From Sphyrna mokarran (taxonomy: Eukaryota), in the NCBI GenBank assembly GCA_024679065.1, contig JAGIQG010000009.1, positions 99,634,001 through 99,698,000 on the forward strand: 64,000 nt of DNA, given 5' to 3'. Shown one piece after another: positions 3,499 to 63,314 of the stretch (within the stretch, counting starts at the first letter, position 1; each line of letters begins with the position of its first letter). The notes under the pieces are model-generated. The model was not told the DNA's origin. It was given only the letters and a program-made list of their open reading frames with translations, and searched no databases. The position numbers and the translations under genes were made by a program.

Positions 3499-3538
3499 TT
3501 ATATGACGGGCAATCTGCAGTGCGCGGAAATCAGCTGC
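3499..3538 (-). CDS. Tentative terminal coding exon, phase 2, (R)QLISAHCRLPVI*
   Basis: tttaatgtcattttag|GCAGCTG...ATATAA; phase fits 4362-4398; minus-strand ATTAAA/AATAAA at ~3155-3177 and ~2885. Confidence 0.35.
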
Positions 3539-6500
3539 CTAAAATGACATTAAATATTAGACTTTTCTAAGCCAATTATCCCCATTGATATGCTGCCCAT
3601 ATGGTAACATATCTGGTGTGCTTTCTGCAAACCTCCAAAACCCCGCCCACTCCGTGCGCATGTCCCGAAGCAAGACTAACCCAGAGCAAAACGTCAAAAA
3701 CGGCGTAACAAGACACATGAAATCATATCAACCCAAATTAGGACAATTAAAATAATATACTGTCCGTGTATGTGTATGCACATTTCTGAATAATCTACTT
3801 GCGAGTTCCTTTATCTTTTGAACTGTTGGAAGAAGAAAATATACGGATGCTAAGCATCAAGAAAGTTATTTCTCGGATGAAATATTTTCCCGTGTCACAC
3901 GTACGATATTATTTACTCTAGAATTAAAAAAACGTATGCTTTTCTTTAGCGGTGTCAAATAATGATATACAATATATAAATCTATATAAATATAACATGA
4001 ATCGCAATCATATATGTTAGTATTGATGGGTCCAATAGTTAAGACATCATTTCCTTAAATGTAATTCGAAAGGGGGGACATTAGTACACCTGATCAGCCA
4101 TTGCGCTTTCAGACAGGGCAAACGTTCAGGTGGATAGTGTTTGATCACCTATTTATGTGCAAATCTCAGTCAGATTGTCAATTCCGATTTGAGTAAATGT
4201 GGACGAGATGAATGCTATCTCCAGCTTGTGAATTAATTGCTTATGAATCCTGTAGTAAATATTGCACTGATCAATGTTTTATTGTTGCCCTTTCTTATGG
4301 GGCACAACAGAACACGAAGTGAAAATGAAAATCACAGAATATCACTGACTGTATTGCTCACCGTATGACCGACGGAGTCAGAGAGAACCCGAAACTTTCT
4401 ATAAGAGTGGGAGGCTGCACAGAACGCACGTGACATGACACTGTGCTGCGTGCTAACTTTTCTTGCGGTGTGGAGACTGAATATTTCGGACGTGTAACTG
4501 ACGTAATCAATTCTTTAGCAAGTTTGACCTTCCAACAAAATATCTTTCAGCCGAAATGCAGAGCACACCGTTAAATAACGAATTATTTGGGGTTCGGGTA
4601 GAATTGAGTGCACTGGGTGGTTTGGGTAAATATCTTTCAATCTCTAGATTACTTATGACCCCACTGTTACCGTTTTCTAATATTGTGCAGGCAGCACAAA
4701 ATTAATGGAGACAACGAACTCAACTTATGATTTAAAACAACGGAAGAGTCTCATTTTATTCCAGAGTGCTGGCCTCATAAAGATTTCTTTTCGAGGCAGG
4801 AGAGACACTGTCAGACGCATGCTGCCAATCGTTAAAATATATCAGTCATTAAGTCCTTGCCTAATGACATATTCAAGCAAGTTGAACCCTGTTTCCGATT
4901 TCCATTTGGAAATATTAGAATTAAATATCCCACCAATGTGGCTGAAGAATTAACAAATGTTTAGTTGAATTGCAGGTTGCTGGAGTGCGGAACTCTAATA
5001 TGTTGCTAAATTTCCACAAGAAGGAAAAAAAGAACTAGTTTCATTCCCAGCAATTTCTATGCAATTGTTTCACGGGATCTTAGAATCGTTACATTCCAGT
5101 GAAGATCGTACGCAGTTTTAAAGTTTTGCTGCTTCGCAGAAAGAGCATTCTGTCTCATTCTTCACAACACAATAACACAGGAAGAAGAAGCAGGGGTAGG
5201 CCACCAGGCACTTTAAGCAGGTCCAGCCATTAAATAGGATCATTGAGAATTTTGCTGGCCTCAATATCTTTTCTTCGGCATTTCCACTTGGTCCTCTAAT
5301 CTTATCTACCACATCCTTTCAGATCATTTATTTTCTGAGAGCAAAACAATTCCATTTCAAGTTGGATCGAGCATGCCTTCTCCACATTTTGCTTAAATTC
5401 GTTCCAATCTGTAATAAATTTTTAGGTGAAGCCACTTCCAGACATCACCTTTGACCATTCACTTGTATATTGATATGCTCTTGAGAACGATTTTTTAACT
5501 ATTTGTCTTGAAATCGTGTGCTATCTTCTTCCTTGAAATAATGAGTCAAAAACGTTACCTGAATTCCACATTACATTATACAATGTTTACTGCCCATGTA
5601 TCATTTCATTTTCTTGGAGAGATCTCAGAATATGCTAAGTGAAATCGATGAGAAACTATCTGTAAGTTGGAATTGTTCAGCACCGTGTGAACAAATAGAT
5701 AAAACATGCATTTGTCAAGTAACTCCCTCTGGCTCGGTTTGCAAACACATGTTATAGATTTGGGAGTAGGGTTATTGATTAAATCCCACATATAATGTTT
5801 TTCAGCTTAATTAACTATTTAAAGTTATCTTGATTCTCTGACAATCAAAATTGCATCCAAATATAACTGATTTCTCAAAGAATCGTGAGATTCACCAATT
5901 TGTAGCCGCAGTCTCGCATTTTCTGAAAAAAAAAATTGAAAGATCAAGAAAAAAAATCAATATGCTCATTTCAAATTATTGATCCACAGTAACTACAGTT
6001 GCATTTCCTCCCTCACCAGCGGCAATTTGTAATAGTGGTTTGACAGCACCAGATTTTGGCGAATGCAGTATGTGTTCACTGGGTTTAATCTGAGCCAAAG
6101 TCACTGGATGGAATATTTCTACAGGCAATCGAAACGGAGAAACGGAATTTTGCACGTCACAAATATATCCACCTTACCTTTTCTCAGTGCCTCCGCTGAG
6201 GAAAAATAAACACATACATTTTATTATGAAGGCGAAGTGAATCCATGCGGTGAAAACCTGTTTGTTAATCATTCAGATCCCACTTTGCACCTGTCACATT
6301 AGATCTATAAAATTGGGTGACTTGTGACTGCCATGTTAATGTCCATTGTGTCCATCCTTGGTTTGCCAGATCTATAACATTTGATGCGATTTAATTTGAT
6401 TTATTATTTTCATGTATTTTGCTATACAATGAAAAGCATTATTTATTGCTCTCTATACAGACAAAGCATAACATTCAAGACTACATAGGAGTCAACGAAA

Positions 6501-9500: not shown

Positions 9501-12500
9501 ACCGTTTTGCATACTTACGAGTTTGTACAGCACCTGCAATGATAATCAACTTGATAAGTATTAATACTGATTTCTTCATCGCTTAACGATCCACTTGTCT
9601 ATCTTGATGCATACTTAACTGTGTTACATTTTAACGAGAAAAGTTAAATATATTGCAATATATGTTTAGCCATGTGCTGCATTATTTGTGACTTTGCTCG
9701 ACAGATGATGTGTTGTTCGATAAGTAAATGGAAATTTAAGCACATGGATAGATATGCAGAGAACTGGGTATTTGCAGAGAGATGGATCACAAGTAGATAA
9801 ATTAAAGGCCTTCTGACGCCAAATTTCAGTGAATTCATCTTGAATCGCCAAAAGGTAAGACAAAGTGTGGTTACAGGAGGGTCTTTTTCTGCATGGAGGT
9901 CTGTCACTAGTGAAGTGCCCCAGGCATCTGTTCTGGGACCCTTCCTCTTTGTAATTTTTATAAATAACCTGGATGAGGGAGTGGAGGATTGGGTTGGTAA
10001 GTTTGCTGATGACACAAAGGTTAGTGTATAGTGTGGAGGAATATCAGAAGTTGCAGCGAGTCATTGATAAGATGCAAGACTGGGCAGAGAAAATGTGGAT
10101 GGATTTCAACCCAGATAAGTGTGTGGTGATTCATTTTGGCAGGTCAAATAGGATGACAGATTATAATATTAAGGGTAAAACTCTTGGCAGAGTGTAAGAT
10201 CAGAAGCATCTTGGGGTCCGGGTTCATAGGACATTCAAAACAGCTTCATAGGTAGAGGCTGTGGTTAAGAAGGCGTATGTGCACTGGCATTCATCAATCG
10301 AGTTTAGGAGTCACGAGATAATGCTGTAATTGTATAAGATAGTGGTCATACCCCATTTGGAGTACTGTGCTCAGTTCTGGTCGCCTCATTATAGGAAGGA
10401 TGTGGAAGCCATAGAAAGGGTGCAGAGGAGATTTATCAGATGTTGCCTGGGTTGGATGGCACGTCTTATGAGGACAGGTTGAGAGAGCTCGGTCTTTTCT
10501 CCTTGGAGACGAAAGATGGGAGGTGACCTGATAGAGGCGTATAAGATGTTAAGAACTATTGATCGAGTAGTTTCTCAGATTTTTTTCCCCAAGAATGAAA
10601 TGGTTGCCACTAGGCGACACAGGTTGAGGGTGCTGGGGAGCAGATAGAGAGGAATTGTCAGGGGTACGTTTTTCATTCAGAGGGTGCTGGGTGTGTGGAA
10701 TCGGCTGCTGGCAGTGGTGGTGCAAGCGGATTCGATAGCGTCGTTTAAGAAACCTTTGGATAAGTACATGGAACTTAGTAAGATAGACGGTTATAGGTAC
10801 GCCTAGTAGGTAGGGACATGTTTGGCGCAACCTGAGGGCCGAAGGGCCTATTTGTGCTGGAGGTTTTCTATGTCTCTATGTTTCTAATTGAGAAATTTGA
10901 TCATATAAGTTGTTTATTCAGTCATATAGAACGCCGGCATTTTCTGAGCGCTGTTTTAAAATGTTGCAATTTGAATCTTCAGCGCAATTTCTGCAGCATC
11001 TAAGCTGAGAGACATTGCTTGCATTTCCCTGGCATGCTATGATAATCACTTGTTTGAAACTATTAACTATTATTTTTTTCCTACGAGTTCAGTTAAAATG
11101 TTTGCTTGTATTATATTTTGTTCCTCTGGACAGCACTGTGCCTTTCTTGACCACTCTTTCTCTCTCTGTCATCACACCCAAATGCAAGTGCTGGTGAGCT
11201 AGAGATACTACTTCTTCTGAAACTCAACATGCACAATCACGCCATTCTTAAATAGCGCATAAGTTTTCTCTGTGCAGTAGTCTTCTGTTTCTGTGTTTCA
11301 AAGAAATCCTGGTTTCTAATATCGAGAAATGTCGTTGTCACACTACACTGCCCTCGACAATCACCCAGATCTTCAAGGTGCCATTTCCGTACAGTGGTAG
11401 GCACTCTTTGGAATGCTCTCCATTCAGTATTTTAGCAGCTGGGCAGTATTAAAACAAATGGCAATAAGGATCAGGCGATTTCGGTGGCAACACAAATAAT
11501 TCATGCAAATAAAATATCATAATTTAGATTTAGAATAATGTCTAATTATGCATCCAGCTCAGAACGAGACACAAGACGGACGCTGGAAGAAACATTCTGC
11601 AGGGTTAACCAACACGATTAATTATTTCTTCTTTCAATGCTGCAGTATACAATGTAGCTCTAAATCCAACTGATCATGTTAGTAAAATTATCGTTGAGTA
11701 AATTTATGTGACGAACCGTCATGAAACAAAATAACCTGCCATTGCTATGCAGTCAGCTGACAGAGAAAAAAATACCTATTACTTTATTTTTAATAATAGG
11801 GAGTAAACGATTTAGGCACTTACGTGCTGATTTGACTTCCAAGTCAGCTCCTAACAAAACAAGACACATAGAATGTAATTGTTGCAAAATTGCGGATAAT
11901 TACTCGCTGAATTTCAAGATCGAACCATATTGATCCTTCATCAAGATTCAACGGGGAACGTTTGGCAAAAGGAGTAACGTTTGTATTATTACAGCAAATT
12001 GTACAATTGAATTAACAAAATAAGTGCACGACATTATCTTTTATATGTCGAAAATGAAAAGTTTCCCGGCCTTACAGCAACGACTAATATGTAAATACTG
12101 AGTATCATTTTGTATATCGTCTGAAGGTGCTTCAGTACAAATCTATCAACCAAATCTTGATACCACATCACAGAGGAAACAATATTAAAGTACATAATGT
12201 ATGTAGTTGTTCAGAGCATAATTTATAGTGGATTATGGAATATGTGATTATTCTTGACTTTAAAAGTGATTTTGGAACATTGAATTGATTTTTACAGATG
12301 AGATACGCATGGTATTTCTTTATTAGTTCCAGTCAGTATTGCCAATCGGTGACGCATTCCACTGCTCACAGCTGGAATTTTGATTATATATTTAAGTTGT
12401 AAAATCCCCGGGAGGACATTCCCACAGAACTTTCATCACACTAGCCATTTATAAAATGCCTGCCTGGAGCTAAAATTTAATGAAAAACAACAAATGGAAT

Positions 12501-15500
12501 AGCGAATGAGAGGTCCCCTTAACCCGCGCGCCAATTGAAATGGAAATTAGGCGCTTTTTAAAACTTTTGCAAATTTGTGCGTTTTTTCTTGTTGCTTAAC
12601 TTCACTCCCGTTGCTGAACTCCGATCCGTTGCTTAATGATATGATTAATGCAATCTGTTTTGATGCTTACTGCAGTCAATGAGAGATTTCGCCACATCCC
12701 TTAATTCTGGAAGAGAAACGCCAGATAATTGGTCCACTACAGTTTTTAATTTGCATTGCAGAAGTTGAAAAGCAGCGCATTATTCGGCGTAACGATTATA
12801 TGGTTTGGTAATGGTAATACAGGTGCAGAATTCAAGAACGTAACAGGGAATTTAGCACAACCATTCATTATGATACGTTTCATTACAATGCATGCCAGTC
12901 ATGCATCCATATATTGTCTGCGCCATGTTAACGTGCAACATTTTAGCAGTAATTTGCCTGTCTCTCTCCTTAAATATTGACCATCTTGTTTTGTGCCAAA
13001 TTTTATTTAAGGGATTTCGCTTTCCGCTTTAGTGTTTATTTTGAAAGAGAAATTTGTCCCACAGCATAGTTCAACAGTTTATGAATTTGTATTGACATTA
13101 TTAACGGAAGATAATTTGTAAGAAGAAATATACTTCTTTCATTTAACCGTTTATAATATTATGTATAAACATTTGTTAAGAAATACCATCCGAAAGTATT
13201 CAAAGTATCTGAATGCCTTGCCCAATAATGGTGAAAATATATCCAGTTAATAATTTTCAGTGGAAATAAGGCAAATTTATTTTCCTAACAATCATTTGGA
13301 TTTCTGTCAAAAACGAGACAACAAATGATGGACTATGTATTCAAGTTATGTCCGTATTCAAATGATATTCAAAAGTTACACTGGTTTGAAGAACTGTTGG
13401 CAGTCACGTTCGGTGTCAATTTCTTTGTGTTGGCGATGGCAATGATCAAGTCAATGTCTGGTGAAAGACGTTTGAATGCAGTCATCATTATGGTTGGAAA
13501 ATAAAACTCTCACGATAAGGAAATTATCGGAGTGGCCATTATGTGAGTCTTTGAAATCATAAAGGGAAACAATTACATTGTCGAATGTTCCAATTGAAGT
13601 CAATTTTCGATTCGTATCCGTTCTTTTTATGGCATAGAATTTTGTGAAATTATTGTGTCCACCTTTGGCTATAGAAGACTCCTGCATCGATTATTTTTCA
13701 TCTATCTCTCCCATATGAGCTGCCATACTGAACCTACGATTTCTAACTTCTATATGCCGAGTAGGAGCGCAAATGAATTCTGCGACTTCATTCACAGGTA
13801 GGTGACAATGATTATTGATTTAAAAAAGGCAGCATTATGGACAAACATCTCCATACAAATAATACCCCATCAATATTATATGCACGAGTTGTGAGATATT
13901 CACCTTGCTGATTTCCGGTAATGTCTTTCGCTGAAAATGCAGAATCAAGTGGTAAATAATACGACAATTTTAATGCCCATTTTCACGAATTCGCTGCATG
14001 GTGTCAAGATCTTAAGTTTGGAATCAGAATTAAGGATACAATTATAATGAATTTTGGGATTGAACCTTACTTTTTTACTCTCTTAACGCACTGTTGTTTG
14101 CTATTTTACAGTCATCAATGTAAACATGAGTATTGCTAATGGCCACATTATTTTCAAACAGTAACATTTATAGGCAGTTTTTCTTTCAAACATTGCAGTG
14201 AGAAAATGCTGAGCAAAGCATTTGAGATAAGTTTGAGGAGTTTGGCGAAAGTGAGTTTTATGCAAATACGTGAAATCTGCAAATCCATGGCAGATAGGTG
14301 TGCTTTACGAAAGTAGATATCTTCCCTCTGTTGTAAGTCTCGAGCTGAACGCTACTTTTTTTTATTTCACTCTCCTTGATTTCTTACCATATTTTTGATT
14401 TTATACTTTCGTTGCTATCTTTTATGTTCCCGTAATTAACCTCTCCATCCGTGAAACAGTTTCTTCATCTCCATTTGAAAGAAAATTTCAGAATTTCAAA
14501 GGCGTCAACTGAATGTGTTATTAGTATTATCAGCTTATTAACTATTCTTAACAGTCACAGTCCCTCAATGATGGCCATATCTCACAGCAAGATAGCTTTC
14601 CAAATTGGCCGTTCGAACAATGATAAAGGCAATAGTCACTGTCACTCGATTCGGTGAAATGAAAAATGCAACTGAGATACTTACATTATGTCTAATCAGT
14701 CTACGTTTTCTATCAGAACATAAATCTAATCCCCATTGCACTGTCGCCTAAAGCTATTCAATTGGCTAAGCATCGTAGTCATTGAACGGAATTTGAAGTA
14801 ATTATTGCATTGTTTAATGTTGATAGCATGTGAACTGGCATAACTGCAGGGCTTGCTAAAATTGGAATCCAATTTGATAATCTTTGTTTATGTTTCCAAA
14901 GAAAGGAAACGGTCATTGAGAAATATTAGAACACAAATGTGATGGACTGTAGAATTAGGTAGTTCTTTATTTAACCGAGAATGAGCTTGAAAATGAGCTG
15001 TATTTAACGAACTAATCTGGTATTAATCTATTGATTAAAGTCATAGTGGTTTCGGATATTCTCAAACATCCAAACAATCATATTATTGACACACCTTGTC
15101 GTATTTTGGTATTTCGAATGTACAGGAAGTAGATGAATAATACCGAGATACTTTGTATCCCTGCAGTTGCTTTACGGAGACCATCAAGCAATGGGTTTGG
15201 GTGCGTACTGCAGGAAAGGTGCAGAGCCATACTCAATACTAGATACTGGGAGCCAATTATAAAGGAACAGCCAACCAGTCCGAGCCGCAGAATAAAAGCT
15301 CTTCAATTAAGGTGAAAACGAAACAGATAGCAAAAGATTTGCATTCAATACAACTCAGAGACATGAATGCAGACATAATGTGCAGACTGCATCGTCACAA
15401 CATTTGCAAAGAATAGGATGGGGCCTAAATAGGCATAGTATTTGATAAAAAACTGATTTTCGTCAATACACATAAGTTGAAATAACTGGCTGACAATTGG

Positions 15501-21500: not shown

Positions 21501-24500
21501 ATGAGCAGGAGAACATGGTAAAGGGGTTAGAAGGCCTTACCCTGCTCCTATGTTCTTAGGTTCCAAAGATAGGCAATAGGGCAAGTGATGAGATTTGAAG
21601 TTATTAGAAGTCTAATGATGACCACGGTGAGCATGAAAACGCTGTTGATTGTTCCAAAGCAATCTGGTTCATTAATGCCCTTTCGTGGAAGGGCATATCT
21701 CATCCTTGTCTACTTTACATGTTATGTCTATGCTCTGCAAATTGTGTAATTGTAAAATAGCCAAAGAAACCAAACAGTTCAAGGGCAGCTTTTGAGTGGC
21801 AACAAATAATGGCCGAACGAAACCAAATGTCGCAAGTTAATAAGACAAAAGGTTTGTAAGGTGCAGGAATAGAATTCGCCCATTCGGCCCATAGATTTGG
21901 TTCTGCCATTCGATCATGGTCGATATCCTCTTCATACTCATTTTCCTGCTTTCTCCTCATGATCCTTAAACCCATTCAGAATTACAATTCTTTCTATCTC
22001 CTTCTTAAATTTGCTCTCTGTTCCACCATCTACCTGAATTTGGGGTAGCCAAATATTCAAAAACATTTGGAAAAAGTGCATTTCCCTCAACTTTGTTTAA
22101 AATTTGCTGTCTCTTATCCTAAGACTGTGGTCTCTTGTCGTAGAATGTCCCAGATGAAGAAGCTTCCTTTTTTATCTATACCTTGTACCATTGTACATAG
22201 ACCAATTTGATCTCCCCTCATTCTTAAATTTAGACAATACAGGCCTAAACTGTTTACTCTCTCTTCACATGGTAAGCTCCTCATCTCCAGAATCAATCTA
22301 GTGATACTCACCTGAACTGTCTCCAATGATATTAATCTTTCCTCAAATAAAGGAACCAAAACAATAGTCCAGGTGTTGTCACAGCGTGCCTTGTATAGTT
22401 GAAACAATGCTTCCTTGCCTTTATATTCTATTAGTTTAGATATAACTGCCAACATTCTACTCGCTTACTTTAGTATCTGCTGTAGCTGCACGATCATTTT
22501 CTGTGACTCATGATGAGGGCACCACATCCCTCTGCATCAGGGCATTCAAAATTTCCCCCCATTTAGATAATAAGTCGCCTTCCCGTTTTTTTTTCGAGCA
22601 AAATGCAACAGAACAAATCATTACTTAGTTTCTGCCTTTCGAGCAATTTCTCCACTGCATAAAGCAGTTGGATTTGGAAATTTATATTGCTTAAGTTCTG
22701 TTGCAGAGACTTTTCATCTGCGAGAAGGTGAAAAGCTGTGGGGCAGGTACAAACGTGGGATTAAGCCTACTAGGAATTATTCCACGAATTCATTCAAGAG
22801 CAAAAATGAACTGTATTCATAGTGGCTTGTAGTCTCCTGCCTCGTGCGATTGAATTGTTTGAATGTTTGTGCACATGGGTGCGCGCGTGTATTTGTTTCA
22901 ATGCATCTGTTGGCATTGGCAATCTTGATCGTGGGGAATCATGGATTATGAGAACTCTCGTCACACAGTCCACCAAAAAAAAATGAGGCAGAAATTATCT
23001 TTCACAATTTCCGAAATAAATTTGGAGATTGACCTCTCTGTTGCCTTAAAGAATTCTACGTTGATTTTTTATTCAGGTGGGTTCAACGCCATTGACCTAA
23101 AAATTTGTGTCAGAAGAGCGTTCTGCTTATGAATGATTTGAACACCGGAAAATTAGATGGCATTAAGGTTACAGCCGATGAAATATTGACAATAATAAAT
23201 TTGCACAGTGGGACAGTTCTTGAAGCCTCATTCACATCCTTCCCTGAACTACAAAACTATCTTTACCTCTAGCAAAATTCACCGATGTGAATGCAACTAA
23301 CAGGAACGAGTTTGAAAAAAAAACACGATGGGTGATATCGTTATACATTAGTTCAATTATCTGCAAACATTAATGTTGCATGGTGATAAATCACGGACGA
23401 ATTAAAATTTATTAGACATGCGAATCGCTGAAATTATATTCTAAATAATTGGCAAATGGACGAGTACACACAACAGTTTTCCACAACCGCTAATAAATCT
23501 GAAGATTCCGTGCTCTTGAAGTATGGGTTCCACAAACCACTTTGCACACACTTGTACATTAAAGAAAACAAACGCAATACTAATTATATTTGAGTGGCAT
23601 ATGGTGTACTCAATGGAAATTTTACAGGCATAACAGAATCGCAGCAAAGTTACATAAAATTCTCATGAAACTATGTTATACGTTGCTGCCTATCAGCTGC
23701 GAGATACCAATGCATTTCTTATTTCTACACAAAACTTATAATCTATGACCATGATCTTAATATTGTCTGCTTCAAAATCGGTTAATGCTAACCTTTGGAC
23801 GCATGCAGATCTCTAATTTCTGTGGATTCATAATTTAAAAAAAATCTGTTATAAAACTTCCAGCTGCAATCCACCATCTGCAATAAAACAATTGTTTTCT
23901 TGTATACTTAAAATTCTTGAACAGCATACCTGCCCTCAATTGAGCTATTCTGTCATCTATATGATAAAGAATTCCATTGTTAATGAGTGACAATTGTTCA
24001 TATCGAGGAAGGCAACAGAACAAGCTATTAATGCATTGTGCTTTATTTCAAGAAAGTACAACATTGAGGGATAGCTATTCATTTGTTCATATCCCACAGC
24101 AATCAATTGGCAATTGATAGCCGATTTGTCAAGGTTGATTTGAAACGAAACTGCATGTTTACTGCCCCCTGATACATTTTCTATGGCAAAGCCCCTACCG
24201 GTCTTATCCAAATTACCAATCGATACCTATGATGCAGTTCAACTGTCTCAGACATTTGATAAACTTGCAATCAATCGGGATGAGTTGATGACAAATGGCT
24301 TTGCCAGCGAATCTTTATTTTTAGGCAATTTCAGTCGCTTTTTAACAGGACTTTCATTCATACAGTTGTAAGCTTTCATATCTGAAAGGATAACCGTAGT
24401 TTAAAAAAAATCAGGTGGAAATGAGCCATTGCAGGCTGAAATCGCGGATTTGTAGATATTATTTTGACCTGTAGATTGAAAACCTTGACTGTGCTTTTAG

Positions 24501-45500: not shown

Positions 45501-48124
45501 ACAGTGACACTTATATCTCTCTAGTTACGCTCTACTGGCATGAGCACATACAATAGCAGCTTCTAACTTGGAATATGTATTTTTCACTTAAATCGTTGAG
45601 AAGTTCAATTAGAAACAAAGTTATTCTGCTAACATTGGGCATTTATTTAAGCTGTACCAGAATAAAAAAAATATATTCGTATAGATATTCCAGTTGTTAC
45701 CTGAGTCATGAGCTTCTATCAGTTCTGGAAGAGAAAACAAAAGTCTGATTGTGTTAAATTAACATCTCAAGCTAAAACAGCTTTAGTTAAGCGACATTGT
45801 GAAAACGATAATTTAGCCTTACTCACCGATTTCCGCCAATTGTTTGGAATACGTGTTAGAATCTACTGTTAGAACTAGTTTTTGACCGTTCGGTCATTAG
45901 AAGTCGTTTTCTTTATTTCATGAGATGTTTATGTCACTGGTTGGCAAGGACATCTGTTGCCCATGTCTAAATGCACTTGACATAATGGTGACGGATAGTC
46001 GTTAGAACAACTGCACTCCAGCAAGTGGAGGCAAGGCTGTCGTGCTATTCAAAGAAAGTCCCAGGATTTTGATCCATCTTAAAAGGAAGAAAAGCAGCAT
46101 GGAACGATATCGGATACCCAAATTATTGCACATTTCGTACAATTTTGCTCTCAAATTGTTGACAGCGAAAAATACTATTGTTTGCACACGCAAGAGGGTA
46201 ATTGCTGTATTGTCTTGACATTTCCATCACAGATTTTATTCCAAATTCGTATTGGAAGTGCTCGTGCACCATGTCAATATAATTAAACGAAACAAAACAG
46301 TGCAAGAGCATGTGAAAATTAAGTGCAACAAACAATATAAACATACTTATTCCGTATCTTACCTTTTTCTTTGTCGGTTAGTAACGTTTCTGCCCAATAA
46401 AAAAAAACTATCGTCACAAAGCAGCAATGAGGCTATATAGTCGATAAAAACTGAATATTACGAGGAATTAGGAACATTCCTTGAAAGTGAGTCACTGTAC
46501 AGAAAAAGTTCTCATAATTAATTTTTATGTTAATATAGATTTATTGACTTGAGGTATTTTTATTTGAAGAATAGATTGTAGATCTTGCACTGCATGATGT
46601 GGGTGGATGTTTTTCTTTACTTCAAAGTAACACACCAGCAAGGGAATTACTATAATTTATTTGTTAAGAGATTAATTATAGTTGTTCAGAACTAAACAGT
46701 GGCCTTAGAAGTAATTATGTGGTCAAATACAACTTGCCGCAGCCGATGAGAAACACCGTTGCAGCTAAGGAAAATTTTCAAAACATGGGATCGATTTTAA
46801 AATTTCAATCACTTGCTACAACGTTGGATGGTTCATGTGACAGGCTCATATAATAGCCAATCCATTATTGGTAAACGTTAAGAAGGGAAGACTATGATAA
46901 GAAATGGAAATGTCGGTATTTTGTTATGATTATTTTGAAAATATTCAGCCATTGAAGGTTCTACGGTGAAAAGTAGCCATTAAATGTTCAACTTATTTGT
47001 TTCTAATAAAAGCCGACATATGTTCAGTTGCGCGCTCAAACAAATATTGCGTGGTTGCAACTGCAAGCAATTCATAATTAATTTATTCATACCTAACGAT
47101 TCATATTTTGTCTTCAATTCTAAAGGAAAATTACAATTTGTTTAGTCTCGTGCATTATACAAACTGAGAGATAAAGATAAGAGTGGGATATGATCGATCC
47201 AACAGAACATTGAAACGTAATAACTGTAGCAATGAAAAAAAAATGCTAATTGCAGCAAACGTCCTTGGAAACTGCACACGGAAGAGAAGATCATAGATAT
47301 CATTTCGACTTCCGAAGAAACTAGCTGCATCATAATACTCTAAATAGGACTTCCTTATTCCTGTATTTCTTTCTAAATGTATTCAGCACTAACAATTTTG
47401 ATGTTGTTTCCATAGAACCACGTTAGAAGAAATTAGTTTCCAGCATTATATCATCAACGTAACGATACCTGCAAATGTTGTTCTTTCAAGTGAGAATGAA
47501 CTCCCGCATAAATGCTGAAATCTAAATTAAAAACAGAAAATGTTGCAAAGACCCAACAGGTCTGGTGGCTTGTGTGGATAGGAAAGTGTTGTAATGTTAG
47601 GAGTCTGTATGAATATTCTTTGAAGTGAAAGATAGAGTGTCATGTGATCGACGTACTTCCCATCTACACCCCTCCCCATTTTGTGTAGCACCTGCGGTCC
47701 CCCCACATCTTCTTTGAGCAAAACCCGAAAAAGTCTCGACTGATACTACTCTCCTCTGCCTGACTGTACTTCATTCCTCACGAATCAGCTTCTGTTTCAA
47801 CTTGTCTCACTGCTTACAAAGTAAAAGCTGCGGCCATGGGTATCTGCATGTTTCCAGGTTCTGCTTATTTTTTTGTGGGTTATGTCCAACATTCTTTGCT
47901 TCTATTCTGCTCAGGCCTGTACTCAGAAAGTTTTCTCCATTATGTTATTAACAGCATAATCAAAGCTGAATTCTAACACATATTTTGCACAAACAATAGA
48001 TATCAATACATTTCGTAATACCACAGCATCATCACACTCCATAACTGCTGCCTGACCAATAATCGTTATAGCATCCTCGCTATTTATTGAAAGACGTTAA
48101 TACTTTCTAAAGACACAAAGTAGC

Positions 48125-48165
<41 letters not shown>

Positions 48166-54100: not shown

Positions 54101-57100
54101 GGTGTCTGTGGAATCGGTTGTAGCCCCCAGTTTCAAAATCGAATTAGATCATATTCGGAAAACAGAAATTAAGTGCTATGGGATTAAAAAAAAACTCATT
54201 ACACAAATTTGTCGCAGCCACGACGGGTCAAGTGCCTGCTTGAATGCTCAAACTATTCTGTGAAGCCACATTTAAACTAAAGTGCTTGCGATGATGATGT
54301 TAGGCAAGAACAGATATCACACAGTTTGGTTGAATATTATGCTGGACAGCACAATAAGCCTTAAAGAGAGTAGTTTGAAATAGTATCATATTGCTGGCAA
54401 GATTTTTCTTATGTGGCACCGTCTCTCTAGCTAACTGTTACACCATTAATAGTGTTTTCTGTGCTCTTGCCTTATCTATGTTTTGTATCTGTGATTGTCA
54501 CGTAAGATGTGCATTTTGTAGAATCTCTGACTGTCTTCTGTAGACCTTAATATAACTCTATATTGAACGTATTTAATTTCGCCCCCCAGGTCCGGAAATA
54601 AATATTGCTACGTCTGTCGATATTTGGTACAAACAAAACTGCCACGTAATTTGGCTTCTACAAGAGAGCCGTCCAATCACATCGATCCTTTCAGGAGATT
54701 GTCAGAGAACAGAATTCTGTTTATGCCTTTAAATCAATTTTACTCACTCACCTACAATATTATACATCAACACTTCATGAAATAAAACTATGAATTCTCA
54801 AAGTATATTACCTTTCAATTGTTTCACCTTATCCGCTGATAAATCGGAAGTAAATATAGCATGTAAGTCTTTTTATAGAACAGGGAATCATGATGTGTTA
54901 TGACAATCTTCTATGCTACTTAGTTGTTTGGATTTGTGCGATGGTTCAAATCAGAGAACATTGAGGTTCCTCAATTCCACAAAAGAAAACAACCCACTAG
55001 CAGAAACCGTTTATGGAAAGGAAAGGGAAAAAAAAATATCGGTGACCTGGGCAATTCCCCCTCCCCACTCCACGAAAAGAATAGCATTTTAAATAGCCTC
55101 AAGTTATTCATAGCCAACATGTTTCGCATTTTTCGATGCAATTCAACGTGACCCTTTACTATCGCAATTACCATTATGCTGTCAATAATTCGGATTGAGG
55201 AATGGATATTGAAAACTCCACCTGCTGTGTGAGATACATTGAAGGTTGTGCTGAATGTCTTCTTGCAACGGCAACCCCCATCTTTACGACGTAAACGGAA
55301 AGAAACAATACCTGCCATGTCCACATAAAACAAATCATAGGATACTTTACCGAGTTGTTTTCGACATTTTATCACCTCTGAATTAAAAGGAGAGCGACAG
55401 ATAAATTGTGAGATTCATCGATTTGAAAGAATGCTAAAACACAGCAGGTAATAACAGAAAATGAACAATAAATTCGGCTGCCCTTGAAGCATCTGATTAG
55501 CCAGGAATATGTTGGGTTTTTCGAATCGGTATCACTCATCTTCAGGACTGAAGACGGTTAAGTACTTCTCGTTCTCGTGCTACAGGTAATGGAGACACAT
55601 TTCCCTTGTCAACCTATTCGAAACATCGTATATTTGTATACAATTTCACTCATTTGGCGTTGTGCAAAAAAGAACAAACCCAGAAACTTCAAGCAAATTT
55701 TCAAGTAAGCACATGAATTCCTGGAACATTTTTTTTGTAAATCTTAGAAACTTCTTAAGTGTACTCAGCGATACGAATACAATGCTCTGTTTGTGGGTTC
55801 AGTAACAAGTTACGAAGGTTCCGTAATGCTGCGTTTGGACCGTATGGGCAGCTCTTAATGCTTCTCAGTCTTTCTGGGAATAAGTCAGGGGTGTCCACAT
55901 TGGGGCAAGACATTTTGAGCTCTGCCGCTTTCCAATTCAATCAATTAAGGCCAGTTCAAGAAAAGTCATAGTGAGCTCTCTTTTTCTGATTGGACCGCAT
56001 GCACTCAGATGTAGGATATTCACAACTGCCCAAGAGGTTGAGGGGGGAATTGTCAGCAAACCACTCAGCTGCTCTCCCGAAAACTCAACATCGACAGGAT
56101 ACTGCCACAAGCTCGAGCTGTAGGAAGGTTTTCTGCATATTGTTCCAGGGATGAGGCACGTGGAAGGAATAGAAACGCAAGGTCACTTTTAGAAAAATAC
56201 AAGGTAGGGGGGGGAGGTGGATTTGAATATGGTCGTCATAAGCATGATAAGTTTTGCCAGCATAGATTAAGGAAAAAAAATACAAATATGTCTGACAAAA
56301 ATAACAGAAGAAGCTGATTTTCGACGACTGACAAAGAGGACAAACAAAACGAGTTGGTGGGGGTGGGGGGTGGGGGAGGAAAACTATTATGCGTTGATTT
56401 GAAACGCAATAACAAAGCTTTTGCTGCCGAGTTATACAGTGCAATGTTTAAAAATAAAATTGGACAAGCTTCTGAAGTGATCGAAAAGGGTCTTTAAGGC
56501 TGAACGGGAAAAGGCAAGTTTTGGAACTGAGTTGCAGAAAGATGATATGGAAAACAGCGTTTCATGACCCGTTGAACGTTTCGAAAATTCTATTATACTA
56601 TTAGAATAGCTTAACATTTGCAGACCTCGCAGATCAATAGGAATCAATCTGACCATTTTCAATGCTTACATTCTGTTGGGAGATAAACGTAATTGAACAG
56701 AAAAAAACAATGCAAGCATAGGTATACATCATCTGAAAAATCAGCGACCTACTTACACACTCAAAACAATTCCCTTTGGACTTCCTACAAGAGATTTCCC
56801 CGCTCCGCTCGCTGGGCTTTTCTGAGCAGAAAACGTCGTACCATGAGGTTCCACTTGCAATCCAAAGTAATAGTCATGATGGTATGCAATGGGACACAGA
56901 AAGGCTTCGAAATGATGCCAGATTGCTGGAACAAAATTGCACCATTCGTAATAAAAAAAAAAGGAATCCACTTCTCACCGCTATCTTCTGGTACTCTCTT
57001 GACTCTTACGTTTCCTGAATGCATAAAGGAAAGCAAGTGTTCTTTCATCCATACGTTTTTGATGACGCACAAGACTTCTCCGACATCCTGCATCAAATTT

Positions 57101-63100: not shown

Positions 63101-63314
63101 AAATTATGCGGAACGTGAAGAAGATTAGGTTTATCTGTATAGCTCATTAAAAGGAAATAAGTTACAGTTGATAAAATGGACCCCTTGCATTCTGCTTTGC
63201 TACAGTTGATAGTGAATGTCAAAATATTACCGCCAGTCACGAAACTTGTCTTATTCTAGATCCAAGCCATAATTCTGTTACCTTCAGTTGGGGATCGCTT
63301 CAATGTGTCCAATT
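3499..63314 (-). CDS. Partial spliced gene model (5' end outside window): microexon-encoded coiled-coil-like protein, about 210 aa in window
   Basis: 21 AG..GT-bounded exons, lengths multiples of 3, all open in phase 1, plus 2 tentative 3' exons. Joined: xLDTLKRSPTE|EVIKCRKQL|ADKVKQLK|ELKTKYESL|ETLLTDKEK|DSNTYSKQLAEI|ELIEAHDS|EFALQTSQK|KLQKTIRDT|RTNLETKEI|EKRLIEREE|ELDAKCKSD|NDRIAQLRA|VAFTSVNFAR|VEKLLERQKL|SSARAN|TKDITGNQQ|ELRDVAKSLIDC|SAVQT|PEALRK|ENARLRLQI|ESFGFSLTPSVI|RQLISAHCRLPVI*. Confidence 0.7.
4362..4398 (-). CDS. Tentative penultimate exon 37 nt, phase 1-2, ESFGFSLTPSVI(R)
   Basis: cctcccactcttatag|AAAGTT...CATACG|gtgagc. Confidence 0.45.
5180..5480 (-). mobile_element. Degraded CR1 3' tail fragment
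   Basis: gaagcaggggtaggcca...gccattaaataggatcat resembles the reverse of the CR1 tail at 19380-19470. Confidence 0.45.
5896..5922 (-). CDS. Microexon 27 nt, phase 1-1, ENARLRLQI
   Basis: poly-T tract cag|AAAATG...AAATTG|gtgaat. Confidence 0.72.
6178..6195 (-). CDS. Microexon 18 nt, phase 1-1, xEALRK
   Basis: tttatttttcctcag|CGGAGGCACTGAGAAAAG|gtaagg. Confidence 0.75.
6390..6720 (-). mobile_element. Non-LTR retrotransposon 3' end (Rex/Babar-like)
   Basis: tttgatttattatt...tatacagacaaagcata...cttgagtccgttggtac matches, from memory, a common shark LINE tail. Confidence 0.5.
8265..8326. repeat. (GGAT)n/(AGAT)n tetranucleotide repeat
   Basis: gatggatggatggatgg tracts. Confidence 0.85.
9519..9533 (-). 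CDS. Microexon 15 nt, phase 1-1, SAVQT
   Basis: attatcattgcag|GTGCTGTACAAACTC|gtaagt. Confidence 0.55.
9850..10886 (+). mobile_element. 5'-truncated CR1 LINE (RT C-terminus and 3' UTR)
   Basis: VPQASVLGPFLFVIFINNLDEG..KFADDTK; frameshifts; tail ttctatgtctctatgtttcta. Confidence 0.92.
12671..12706 (-). CDS. Microexon 36 nt, phase 1-1, ELRDVAKSLIDC
   Basis: gtttctcttccag|AATTAA...ACTGCA|gtaagc; stops in both other frames. Confidence 0.7.
13904..13930 (-). CDS. Microexon 27 nt, phase 1-1, TKDITGNQQ
   Basis: ttctgcattttcag|CGAAAG...AGCAAG|gtgaat. Confidence 0.68.
15470..17340 (-). mobile_element. Old CR1/L2-group LINE remnants (RT region), with a second overlapping fragment at ~17150-17340
   Basis: Degenerate similarity, from memory, to a common shark LINE (caggtcttgctgcatt, gaagcaactgaagatg, gatgaggtcagg..aacccaaa); no intact ORF. 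Confidence 0.5.
18099..18116 (-). CDS. Microexon 18 nt, phase 1-1, SSARAN
   Basis: ctttattttaaag|GCAGTG...CCAATA|gtaagt. Confidence 0.5.
18890..19470 (+). mobile_element. 5'-truncated CR1 LINE 3' end
   Basis: LVRPQLANCVQFWSPHLRKD..VQRRFTRLIP; tail ttcttatgttcttatgtt. Confidence 0.92.
19560..21565 (+). mobile_element. Degraded CR1 with internal deletion (ORF1 end, EN, jump at ~20700 to RT C-terminus, 3' tail)
   Basis: GEFNLHVDW, PTREQSILDL and GRSDH (EN), then directly QMEYNVAKCEVIHFG; tail cctatgttctta. Confidence 0.8.
21600..21725 (+). mobile_element. tRNA-SINE central fragment (same family as 53130-53455)
   Basis: ctggttcattaatgccctttcg..catcctt shared with 53300-53350. Confidence 0.5.
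21845..22605 (-). mobile_element. 5'-truncated CR1 LINE 3' end
   Basis: IEYKGKEALFQLYK..LETVQ..TRLILEMRSLPCEERVNSLGLY. Confidence 0.85.
22625..22654 (-). CDS. Microexon 30 nt, phase 1-1, VEKLLERQKL
   Basis: ctgctttatgcag|TGGAGA...AACTAA|gtaatg. Confidence 0.65.
   Translation of the reverse strand, partial: WRNCSKGRN
23267..23296 (-). CDS. Microexon 30 nt, phase 1-1, VAFTSVNFAR
   Basis: ctcgttcctgttag|TTGCAT...CTAGAG|gtaaag; a competing internal donor (gtgaat) would give 14 nt. Confidence 0.45.
23930..23956 (-). CDS. Microexon 27 nt, phase 1-1, NDRIAQLRA
   Basis: ttctttatcatatag|ATGACA...GGGCAG|gtatgc. Confidence 0.75.
24572..24695. mobile_element. Short Penelope-derived element with inverted ends
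   Basis: aagtctcacaaaacagattaaag ... ctttaacctggtgttgtgagactt form an imperfect inverted repeat; related one-ended copy at 39360-39480; family assignment from memory. Confidence 0.55.
25758..31535 (+). mobile_element. Degraded Gmr1-type Gypsy LTR retrotransposon (gag/SCAN-like, integrase, RT, RNase H) with diverged LTRs
   Basis: SCAN-like ILKEFGNAFPDVIRTH ~27490; integrase PIPTF..MDCIGLLPKTK ~28670-28740; RT YAIPRLENC ~29950, GMKNSPATF ~30115, VYIGDL ~30190; RNase H TDHNP ~30560; LTR similarity 26164/31216 (ctgatattgaag.gga.ttt) and 26322-26420/31376-31482. Confidence 0.8.
31727..31753 (-). CDS. Microexon 27 nt, phase 1-1, ELDAKCKSD
   Basis: taattaactttag|AGCTGG...CCGACA|gtgagt. Confidence 0.75.
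31880..31906 (-). CDS. Microexon 27 nt, phase 1-1, EKRLIEREE
   Basis: ttcatttgttttag|AAAAGC...AGGAAG|gtaaac. Confidence 0.78.
32245..34418 (+). repeat. Diverged direct repeat pair (~32245-32515 and ~34128-34418)
   Basis: Colinear words attatct, gatcactga.agttg, ttcatgtcttacg, gttcata, gtaataa, ataccatg, ctgtga. Confidence 0.7.
34430..34727 (-). mobile_element. Old tRNA-derived SINE
   Basis: Reverse similarity to 53130-53455 (gagtcacatg, cattag..ttactagt). Confidence 0.5.
36190..36216 (-). CDS. Microexon 27 nt, phase 1-1, RTNLETKEI
   Basis: gttgtatttcag|GAACAA...AAATTG|gtagga. Confidence 0.65.
37150..37455 (+). mobile_element. HE1-like tRNA SINE, degraded
   Basis: gcattgctgcctca..ccaggtttgatt..gactgtctttgtggactttgca resembles the reverse of 42290-42420. 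Confidence 0.6.
38073..38099 (-). CDS. Microexon 27 nt, phase 1-1, (K/E)LQKTIRDT
   Basis: tcatttatttcag|AGTTGC...ACACAA|gtatgt. Confidence 0.72.
38430..39338. mobile_element. About 0.9 kb element with ~140 bp imperfect terminal inverted repeats (putative non-autonomous DNA transposon or foldback)
   Basis: 38430-38570 is the reverse complement of 39199-39338; perfect 21-mer gaaatcctgtttctcatatga at 38491 and 39279. Confidence 0.6.
40078..40337 (+). repeat. 260 bp direct repeat, copy 1 (source)
   Basis: Ungapped alignment to 41942-42201, offset 1864. Confidence 0.92.
40392..40418 (-). CDS. Microexon 27 nt, phase 1-1, EFALQTSQK
   Basis: tttcctcttacag|AATTCG...AGAAAA|gtaaga. Confidence 0.7.
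41886..42423 (-). mobile_element. HE1-like tRNA SINE interrupted by the 260 bp copy (41942-42201)
   Basis: Tail tttatttagtagtcacaag..cactgtaatgaagtta (41886-41942); body cccctagtc..gcagacacggggagaacgtgcaaactccac..aatcgaaccc..gctaaccactgtgc (42210-42423) with reverse A/B boxes. Confidence 0.85.
43289..43515 (+). repeat. Tandem duplication, period 115 bp, two nearly identical copies
   Basis: cagaaaatataagtc...ggaaaatcga at 43289 and 43404; one mismatch seen. Confidence 0.95.
45701..45724 (-). CDS. Microexon 24 nt, phase 1-1, ELIEAHDS
   Basis: ttttctcttccag|AACTGA...ACTCAG|gtaaca. Confidence 0.7.
45827..45862 (-). CDS. Microexon 36 nt (NAGNAG alternative 39 nt), phase 1-1, DSNTYSKQLAEI
   Basis: ttctaacagtag|ATTCTA...AAATCG|gtgagt. 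Confidence 0.6.
46363..46389 (-). CDS. Microexon 27 nt, phase 1-1, ETLLTDKEK
   Basis: tttttttattgggcag|AAACGT...AAAAAG|gtaaga. Confidence 0.72.
47093..47119 (-). CDS. Microexon 27 nt, phase 1-1, ELKTKYESL
   Basis: ttttcctttag|AATTGA...CGTTAG|gtatga. Confidence 0.75.
47690..47960 (+). mobile_element. Penelope-like RT fragment
   Basis: KAAAMGICMFPGSAYFFVGYVQHSL resembles the Penelope RT motif KGVAMGTRMGPSYACLFVGYVE. Confidence 0.65.
48127..48162. repeat. (TA)n microsatellite
   Basis: Pure TA run. Confidence 0.95.
50858..53100 (-). mobile_element. Cluster of degraded CR1 LINE fragments
   Basis: Tail aagaacaaag..cagcacaggaac at 50858-50905; RT motifs PQGSVPG..YDLDVN..FVDDTTI at 51950-52150. 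Confidence 0.7.
53130..53455 (+). mobile_element. tRNA-derived SINE
   Basis: ggtgtaatggtattgtcactggactag head; ctgccgtccttacctggtc..catgtgactccagacc body. Confidence 0.6.
54812..54835 (-). CDS. Microexon 24 nt, phase 1-1, ADKVKQLK
   Basis: ttccgatttatcag|CGGATA...TGAAAG|gtaata. Confidence 0.6.
55351..55377 (-). CDS. Microexon 27 nt, phase 1-1, EVIKCRKQL
   Basis: ctccttttaattcag|AGGTGA...AACTCG|gtaaag. Confidence 0.7.
57491..59972 (-). pseudogene. CR1 ORF2 (APE endonuclease plus RT), disrupted
   Basis: NARSIRNK, ISETW, MGDFN, NYRPVSL, GVPQGSVLGP, KFADDTK, VRPHLEY; split into 4 ORFs by frameshifts/stops. Confidence 0.93.
60084..61007 (-). CDS. CR1 ORF1: zinc finger/leucine zipper plus SGNH (GDSL) esterase
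   Basis: ATG at 61007 MAAQAVRCTSC; LEDRVKELELELEEL; VIGDSIVR, HVGTHD, GLHLN; open for 307 aa. Confidence 0.9.
   Translation of the reverse strand: MAAQAVRCTSCGMYEVRDTSSVPADYTFRKCAHLQLLEDRVKELELELEELRIIREVEEDIGRSNNEIVTPKSDSWVTIRRRGKKQSGRQSPGAVPLQNKFSVLEATVEEESTGDDQREPASGGEPAENAQVGRGNKRLGLVIGDSIVRGTDRRVNSNKSDSGLVCCLPGAGVQDVADRVFKILKGQGSQPQVIVHVGTHDIGRTRERDIKQKFMELGWKLRAKTGRVVISGLLPVPRDSLEKNRERECLNSWLRGWCRREGFRFLNNWDSFWDRWDLYKRGGLHLNQRGTNILGGKFAKAMQGALN
61420..62640 (+). repeat. Diverged direct repeat pair (~61420-61640 and ~62415-62640)
   Basis: Colinear words tgcactg..gcag.ggtacctt, atcagattg, gtcatgaat, aatccca.ttttt, gtccatgg.g.aacaagac. Confidence 0.7.
63282..63314 (-). CDS. Microexon 33 nt, phase 1-1, (E/K/Q)LDTLKRSPTE
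   Basis: ctttgtttacag|AATTGG...CTGAAG|gtaaca. Confidence 0.65.

Follow-up and report, generated by a model that had tools for sequence, protein, structure and literature searches.

The microexon array of the window

Gene A of the shark Sphyrna mokarran encodes a long coiled-coil protein from very short exons and is part of a gene cluster in the class I framework region of the major histocompatibility complex (MHC), beside rps5 and NRM. The sequence under study, called here the window, is a stretch of 64,000 nucleotides (nt) at positions 99,634,001-99,698,000 of contig JAGIQG010000009.1 (C1548), in a genome of 2.77 Gb; coordinates beyond the window are those of this contig. The minus strand of the window carries 21 AG/GT-bounded phase-1 exons of 18-36 nt, with a total of 582 nt or 194 codons. 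Once joined, they contain no stop codon in phase 1, whereas phases 0 and 2 have 19 and 11, respectively. These exons are the following (window positions; counterparts belong to homologous proteins of catsharks and of the electric ray Narcine, described below):

63282..63314, minus strand, microexon of 33 nt, phase 1-1, start of a linker; collinear with Scyliorhinus torazame XP_072329363.1
56979..57014, minus strand, microexon of 36 nt, linker; collinear with XP_072329363.1
55351..55377, minus strand, microexon of 27 nt, starts at heptad position g; not in the catshark model, aligns with Narcine
54812..54835, minus strand, microexon of 24 nt, starts at heptad position b; Narcine counterpart (residues 386-393) skipped in one isoform
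47093..47119, minus strand, microexon of 27 nt
46363..46389, minus strand, microexon of 27 nt
45701..45724, minus strand, microexon of 24 nt
40392..40418, minus strand, microexon of 27 nt
38073..38099, minus strand, microexon of 27 nt
36190..36216, minus strand, microexon of 27 nt
33001..33036, minus strand, microexon of 36 nt
31880..31906, minus strand, microexon of 27 nt
31727..31753, minus strand, microexon of 27 nt; 9 of 9 residues the same in catshark
23930..23956, minus strand, microexon of 27 nt, weak acceptor
23793..23819, minus strand, microexon of 27 nt
13904..13930, minus strand, microexon of 27 nt
12671..12706, minus strand, microexon of 36 nt
11824..11850, minus strand, microexon of 27 nt
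6178..6195, minus strand, microexon of 18 nt; counterparts in paralogue protein P0021 and in Narcine
5896..5922, minus strand, microexon of 27 nt, xLRLQx class
3799..3822, minus strand, microexon of 24 nt, the weakest exon of the set; consistent with the 24-nt class found after xLRLQx exons

Three further open phase-1 candidates on the minus strand, at 39794-39829 (36 nt), 11736-11756 (21 nt) and 2334-2369 (36 nt), are possibly extra or alternative exons and stand outside these 21.

Chance was assessed in two ways. With a generic splice matrix and candidates of 6-60 nt, a length of 27 nt was shown by 10 of the 66 minus-strand candidates and by none of the 64 on the plus strand; block shuffles gave a mean of 0.6 and a maximum of three candidates of this length. 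With an exon model trained on 42 exons outside the window and a score threshold of at least 9, the window gave 11 exons on the minus strand and none on the plus strand, the corresponding values being a mean of about 0.4 and a maximum of two in 120 local dinucleotide shuffles, and 2 and 0 exons in 120 kb of neighbouring TRIM/NRM DNA used as a control. Throughout 893 kb sampled within 99.10-100.74 Mb, this score was reached by 128 exons on the minus strand versus 9 on the plus strand (training exons included).

The original prediction, made from the letters of the window alone, had described a 60-kb gene of about 21 symmetric microexons. Its peptides are all located on the minus strand (ELKTKYESL at 47094-47120, ETLLTDKEK, EKRLIEREE, ELDAKCKSD, DRIAQLRA, EALRK and ENARLRLQI). 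The minus-strand excess, absent from the plus strand and from the shuffles (11 exons versus none and at most two), confirms that the exons are real, and the 27-nt length mode and single-strand bias that had been set against chance hold as well (10 of 66 candidates, none of 64, and never more than three in shuffles). The segments are indeed multiples of three without stops in phase 1. Their number, 21, stands, but they measure 18-36 nt instead of 15-36 nt and add up to 194 codons instead of 187. No exon ends at 3499, which had been given as the left limit and is probably a slip, since the last supported exon is that at 3799-3822. Finally, 60 kb is an underestimate, the array extending far past both ends of the window.

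Gene A, its paralogues and its homologues

The window is almost certainly the middle of a real minus-strand gene of about 344 kb. The gene A model has 79 exons (44 upstream of the window, 21 within it and 14 downstream), all bounded by AG and GT, which encode 794 codons without any stop. Forty-six exons measure 27 nt, 20 measure 36 nt, eight measure 24 nt and two measure 18 nt; the remaining three measure 33, 42 and 132 nt. Introns have a median length of 2.5 kb, and Glu occupies 48 of the 78 split codons. The gene starts at a 132-nt exon bearing a Met codon (C1548:99,847,298-99,847,429), 149 kb to the right of the window and separated from it by 43 microexons. To the left of the window there are 14 more microexons (C1548:99520583-99619258) and then a decayed B30.2 exon, all of which would be part of the same transcript as the window exons. 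The exons were partly picked with the catshark protein as a guide, and the model is incomplete, with some exons absent and the last 14 placed solely by their scores for splice sites and composition.

A locally repeated segment of about 1.3-1.6 kb, situated 3-11 kb to the left of the window, contains three 24-nt phase-1 candidates for a linker rich in Gly, Thr and Asp, which are outside the model.

Gene A has at least two tandem paralogues on the same strand, gene B and gene 0, with start exons at 99.470 and 100.480 Mb, respectively. The family is conserved in four other elasmobranchs (two catsharks, an electric ray and a skate). The start exon led to S. torazame XP_072329363.1, an uncharacterised protein of 730 residues, and to S. 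canicula XP_038671248.1; these catshark proteins led in turn to isoforms of Narcine bancroftii, to Leucoraja erinacea XP_055520637.1 and to the S. canicula paralogue XP_038673008.1 (LOC119976528), with which the 100.48-Mb paralogue is collinear. The members on record are thus these four accessions and XP_069775393.1, with isoforms. Gene A and XP_072329363.1 are identical at 425 of 666 aligned residues (64%), the window part contributing 90 of 164, and gene A shares 230 of 617 residues with the Narcine X1 isoform.

The RefSeq names of these proteins are either uncharacterised or generic coiled-coil ones (CENP-E-like, EEA1-like, myosin-like), and all the models stop short of the downstream arrays and B30.2 exon present in Sphyrna mokarran. 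The genes are therefore on record as partial models, yet they are not understood. The homology search returned no other credible match beyond the elasmobranch proteins mentioned; P0020 and P0022, two of six phmmer hits, were unrelated repeat proteins from ENA contigs and were dropped. None of 4381 candidates was a shorter homologue (30-217 residues). Pfam gave only generic sub-threshold matches on the homologues, the PDB searched with a coiled-coil profile gave no match, and the ESM Atlas returned only generic coiled-coil look-alikes of mixed families. With respect to the literature, no paper was found on the identifiers of the family, and no title or abstract opening describing a shark microexon coiled-coil/B30.2 family was found in a search whose coverage is thin for subscription journals and supplements.

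Heptads and exon modules

The gene A protein has a hydrophobic period of about 3.5 residues. In the register given by our own scoring matrix, positions a and d are mostly occupied by Leu or Ile, Lys being frequent at d, and each exon class has fixed heptad positions at which it starts. Thus, 19 of the 20 exons of 36 nt begin at g; those of 27 nt begin mainly at e (26) and less often at c (9), g (7), a (3) or d (1); and those of 24 nt begin at b (5), g (2) or c (1). The AlphaFold model (predicted local distance difference test, pLDDT, 69.6), built on an alignment of six sequences, presents six long helices, disordered linkers and a disordered N-terminus and supports helicity only. The hydrophobic period, the class-specific heptad starts and the predicted helices agree with the coiled-coil character first read from the window.

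Since all exons are multiples of three in phase 1, exon skipping keeps the reading frame. However, the exons encode 8, 9 or 12 residues, so that the heptad register is kept by whole modules of 21 residues (36 plus 27 nt) or 35 residues (three exons of 27 nt plus one of 24 nt) whereas single exons do not keep it: the 42-nt linker exon is the sole microexon whose length is a multiple of seven residues. In this exon design the symmetry of the frame is uncoupled from that of the heptad, which makes it useful for studies of microexon splicing and of coiled-coil evolution.

Isoforms and selection

The Narcine isoforms provide support that is independent of the shark genome. Fifteen RefSeq isoform models were compared with X1, covering 15 of the 19 cluster members plus one singleton. 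The isoforms listed contain 11 distinct internal deletions of 8, 9, 12 or 18 residues. In ten of them, neither end is more than one residue away from an exon border projected from the Sphyrna mokarran genome (null mean 1.65; ten reached in none of 20,000 draws), although one of these ten sits in a poorly aligned region. None of the deletions, single or combined (8-30 residues), is a multiple of seven.

The ratio of non-synonymous to synonymous substitutions (dN/dS) between genes A and B is 0.37 (bootstrap 0.20-0.68; dS 0.68) in 14 exon pairs, all upstream of the window, which indicates purifying selection on the microexons. It is extremely unlikely that gene A is a recent pseudogene or that its exons are chance picks: such a reading would account for the broken terminal domain exon and could appeal to the use of the catshark protein in exon picking, but it is at odds with the strand and shuffle controls, with the 79 open exons out of 79 with canonical sites, and with a dN/dS below 1.

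The 3' end of the cluster

Here, four 27-nt exons are followed by a phase-1 exon at 99,103,835 that codes for a divergent B30.2/SPRY domain (SPRY E-value 7e-8, above the cut-off; too divergent for Pfam PRY). This end presumably belongs to gene B, an assignment that has to bridge 99.13-99.39 Mb, which was unread. Its frame is open for 153 codons and then meets a TGA just ahead of the LYPFF strand. Seventeen kb beyond the last detected microexon of gene A there is a relic of the same exon (99,502,847-99,503,378), which retains an intact acceptor and has accumulated stops and frameshifts. The relic has 66% DNA identity to the gene B exon and carries the same TGA, which therefore predates the duplication that gave rise to genes A and B. 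Phase-1 splicing to it would lengthen the protein by about 29 residues before a stop. In gene B, the TGA may be subject to stop-codon read-through. Past this codon (followed by C), at C1548:99,103,306-99,103,374 on the minus strand, the frame runs on with LYPFF and has the same end as the intact paralogue.

The closest relative in the genome, a same-strand B30.2 exon at 101.418 Mb, is intact and has 172 residues. Among solved structures it matches BTN3A1/A3 best (95 bits), then TRIM21 (79) and pyrin (62). This order, a lead towards butyrophilins, differs from that of a neighbouring TRIM used as a control (pyrin 183, TRIM21 156 and BTN3 151 bits). A B30.2 motif scan of 564 kb gave nothing, and a Pfam PRY search of the genome gave no match at 98.3-102.0 Mb (150 of 208 candidates scored); both missed these divergent copies, which were found later. 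Six B30.2 exons at C668:8.5-14.3 Mb are among the eight closest relatives of the gene B domain (self excluded), ahead of most MHC TRIMs.

The cluster very probably descends from a B30.2 gene of the butyrophilin or TRIM type. TRIM genes have a small phase-1 exon ahead of the B30.2 exon, and the family could be a TRIM devoid of RING and B-box in which the coiled coil was rebuilt by repeated duplication of that exon; its products would pair with the MHC TRIMs as decoys or in a lattice. The large PRY/B30.2 clusters flanking the region, the 27-nt phase-1 exon detected last before the gene B domain, and the position of TRIM21 as next-best solved match are in line with this proposal. Nevertheless, we consider it unlikely: neither RING nor B-box was found in the homologues or in upstream open reading frames (ORFs), in three PRY genes sampled nearby the coiled coil comes from long exons (96 nt) and 20 kb of each gave no microexon candidate, and the B30.2 match ranking is unlike that of the TRIM control. 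As to ancestry itself, we lean slightly towards butyrophilin rather than TRIM.

The fate of the B30.2 exon is also relevant to a different proposal, a structural (perhaps germ-line or cytoskeletal) coiled-coil family without immune function, in which the B30.2 relic only supplies the 3' end and the MHC location is historical. The domain has decayed in gene A and is cut short in gene B while the microexons are under purifying selection, and the RefSeq models end without it. Besides, the family is annotated in four species, but white shark and sawfish have no annotation of it at this position, a pattern that tissue-restricted expression could explain, and the accessible part of PMC5938342 describes a BG zipper protein that regulates actin-myosin. 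On the other hand, the frame of the gene B domain is still open over 153 codons although its DNA differs by about 34% from that of the gene A copy, and the relative at 101.418 Mb is intact. This proposal, which has the same anatomy as the one that we prefer and differs in function alone, appears rather unlikely.

The 5' end of the genes

As had been predicted for a coiled-coil gene whose N-terminus lies to the right of the window, gene A begins with the Met exon 149 kb away. The same prediction offered, as one possibility, that it is the cytoplasmic tail of a membrane-bound butyrophilin- or BG-like receptor, with immunoglobulin (Ig) and transmembrane (TM) exons further upstream. In all three start exons the ATG is preceded by 14 nt of open phase-1 sequence, as would be expected after a TM exon, and exons for a butyrophilin-type Ig constant-like (IgC) domain do occur next to PRY exons elsewhere on the contig (94.4, 97.4 and 109-111.6 Mb). 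However, Ig families matched none of 163 ORFs upstream of the three start exons, no Ig sequence pattern was present in 624 kb, and C2-set_3, the butyrophilin-type IgC family, had no match between 97.4 and 109.2 Mb (34 matches among 88 candidates). A search with the V-set family, in which 150 of 1261 candidates were scored, carries no weight for this region. No TM exon was found upstream of genes A and 0, and a single weak hydrophobic candidate was detected upstream of gene B; only 32 kb separate the gene A relic from the start of gene B.

The homologues tell the same story. The maximum of a 19-residue hydropathy window is 0.4-1.35 in five of them, and their N-terminus is acidic and non-hydrophobic, unlike a signal peptide. 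Three RefSeq models (two of S. canicula and one of Narcine) begin at the start-exon Met, and that of S. torazame has only 22 extra residues before it, which are non-hydrophobic. Gene A therefore appears to start at its own Met exon, no Ig or TM exon having been found in the DNA read, and the receptor reading is very unlikely. A C-type lectin with a stalk like that of CD23 or CD209 was also considered and rejected, as 564 kb contained no convincing lectin motif.

The disordered N-terminus of the shark paralogues (start exons at 99.847, 99.470 and 100.480 Mb) has a conserved acidic tyrosine motif, DEYINI or DEYMNI, which is absent in Narcine and which we take to resemble a phosphotyrosine docking site. 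The dN/dS of the first 26 codons of the start exons is 0.17.

Location in the MHC

All 53 MHC class I matches of the genome are on C1548, at 85.8-95.8 Mb, and the PRY/B30.2 clusters of this contig occupy 91.8-98.2 and 102-112.9 Mb. Exons of rps5 are located at 98.99 Mb, and exons at 99.075 Mb are presumably nurim (NRM), for which Pfam gave no confirmation. A search for MHC class II beta found nothing and is uninformative. About ten butyrophilin-like genes are also present on the contig (94.4, 97.4 and 109.2-111.6 Mb), each with a butyrophilin-type IgC exon and a same-strand PRY exon within 7-40 kb.

The synteny extends to other species. According to the accessible supplement of PMC10751288, the catshark LOC119976528 spans 291 kb and is one of seven unnamed genes, each of 0.18-1.18 Mb, that succeed one another on one strand as far as NRM; beyond NRM come rps5, DHX16, polr1h, vars2, gnl1 and abcf1; judging from their position, the other six giant genes may belong to the same family. 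In the accessible main text of this paper there is no mention of butyrophilin, TRIM, coiled or gene desert. Going by annotation and not by sequence, NRM is followed by 1.83 Mb without an annotated gene in white shark, at NC_054485.1:92.35-94.18 Mb, and by 0.96 Mb in sawfish, at NC_067438.1:7.52-8.48 Mb, where PBX2 and NOTCH4 are 0.3-0.4 Mb from the gap. In reedfish there is no such empty interval, and a gene model of 745 kb overlaps nrm. A conserved multigene family, missed or truncated by standard annotation, would thus occupy an apparently empty interval of megabase scale in the MHC of the most ancient lineage of jawed vertebrates.

A probable soluble tail-like family

Gene A and its paralogues probably form a soluble family that resembles the tails of butyrophilins and BG, composed of a microexon coiled coil and a B30.2 domain without ectodomain or membrane anchor. 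The ancestral unit would have opened with a hydrophilic exon bearing the Met, continued with tens of symmetric phase-1 microexons for a coiled coil with interrupted heptads, and closed with a 27-nt exon and the B30.2 exon in phase 1. This would be the layout of the cytoplasmic tail of a butyrophilin, greatly lengthened as it is in chicken BG. Its product would be a soluble cytoplasmic rod of about 800 residues and about 100 nm, with five or six helical segments joined by short linkers, which may dimerise through the heptad coiled coil. Paralogues bearing the B30.2 domain could display a ligand-binding pair at the rod end, as the BTN3A and TRIM tails do. Gene A, where this domain has been lost and the rod exons are under selection, might act as a rod, as a spacer or as a decoy partner, in the manner of the soluble BG "zipper protein". 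Single skips would change the length and pairing geometry of the rod, and skips smaller than a module would shift the register, which may be pairing tuning or noise. That the role is in innate immunity instead of purely structural is a possibility held tentatively, as it is suggested by location and domain only.

Several observations weigh against this reading. With respect to the rod, the heptad register comes from our own scoring matrix and has 13 breaks, the predicted template modelling score (pTM) of the AlphaFold model is 0.19, and the Narcine single-exon skips may be splicing noise, since none keeps the register. The gene model in Sphyrna mokarran was built from genomic sequence alone. 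With respect to the B30.2 domain, that of gene B has its TGA about 20 codons short of the normal end, and the 101.418-Mb exon was read without its upstream DNA, which leaves its tie to a microexon gene putative; because BTN2A1 ranks low against this exon (54 bits), the preference for BTN3 is a lead and not a phylogeny. None of the five RefSeq family genes seen has a B30.2 domain, so that splicing from microexons to B30.2 is proposed from position, strand and phase only. The RefSeq C-termini did not match the B30.2 peptides clearly above shuffles (the best case was equalled by 11 of 300), and no trace of B30.2 was found behind the upstream array at window 214-275 kb.

A broader picture, which we regard as decidedly unlikely, would see in these genes surviving ectodomain-less "butyrophilin tails" in an interval of 1-4 Mb on the NRM side of elasmobranch MHCs. 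Their module would be ancestral to the tails of butyrophilins and BG, and the exon grammar of 8, 9 and 12 residues would let splicing set rod length and partner choice in a cytoplasmic system of immune sensing or decoy. In any case, the origin of BG and butyrophilin tails becomes testable.

Comparison with known systems

Chicken BG genes, as described in the accessible parts of PMC5938342, PMC4046983 and PMC8813856, have a signal peptide, an IgV domain, a TM region, 13-36 exons of 21 nt (few of 18 or 24) each of which equals one heptad, and no B30.2; a soluble BG tail, the zipper protein, regulates actin-myosin (PMC5938342, PMC4046983). On the basis of these descriptions, both systems build a long coiled coil from many small phase-1 exons (first codon split), are arranged as tandem same-strand copies in or beside the MHC and a TRIM region, and show alternatively spliced tail exons, BG also having a soluble tail-only form. 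In contrast to BG, the shark gene lacks Ig and TM exons, has about 78 microexons in one gene, mostly of 27 and 36 nt, extends for about 344 kb compared with 99 kb for 12 BG genes, and belongs to a family with a B30.2 exon. The exon unit of BG does not apply, as none of the 79 exons measures 21 nt. The cluster would add a second vertebrate example of an MHC gene family in which microexons encode a long coiled coil, tied here to a B30.2 exon.

The resemblance to butyrophilins (BTN3A1/A3, BTNL) lies in MHC linkage, in BTN3A1/A3 being the top solved matches of the cluster B30.2 and, putatively, in heptads followed by B30.2, an order that the genomic sequence shows for gene B, with a truncated domain, and for gene A through its relic. 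Nevertheless, the shark family has neither IgV-IgC nor TM, has about 100 heptads compared with a few, and its B30.2, truncated in gene B and degenerate in gene A, is too divergent for Pfam PRY. Gene A is not a member of the BG or butyrophilin families, since no Ig or TM exon was found and its exon unit is other than 21 nt. The link to butyrophilins and BG made in the original prediction survives in the MHC location and in the terminal B30.2 of the family with BTN3A1/A3 as best match, but not as a receptor tail.

TRIM-B30.2 proteins of the MHC are soluble and carry a coiled coil and then B30.2, as the shark family would, and are chromosomal neighbours, but they differ by having RING and B-box and a coiled coil coming from a few long exons instead of microexons. 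Identity with CCHCR1 was rejected, the orthologue being a separate gene at 112.03-112.05 Mb, and the homologues gave no match to the Pfam family HCR.

Mammalian TSBP1/C6orf10 is an MHC gene beside NOTCH4/BTNL2 with many very small exons, a structure that literature searches did not confirm. It had no sequence match in any search, none of which was aimed at TSBP1 itself, and any resemblance is putative. In Schistosoma, micro-exon genes give rise to in-frame skipping variants. Their coding sequence consists almost wholly of very short exons, as in the shark family (an analogy only), but they encode secreted parasite proteins, whereas the family described here is from a vertebrate, has no signal peptide and forms a heptad rod (bioRxiv 10.1101/2023.06.21.545858, accessible part).

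Other features of the window

A near-full-length long interspersed nuclear element (LINE), CR1-like by its layout, is located in an intron at 57769-61058 on the minus strand. It contains an ORF1 with a GDSL/esterase domain, followed by endonuclease and reverse transcriptase in two frames, and has many close copies in the flanks. A 115-bp tandem duplication (2.1 copies, 96%) is present at 43273-43515, and microsatellites are found at 8264-8326 and 48127-48162. In the whole window, CpG depletion is only mild for vertebrate intronic DNA (about 30-80 per 2 kb at 35-45% GC).

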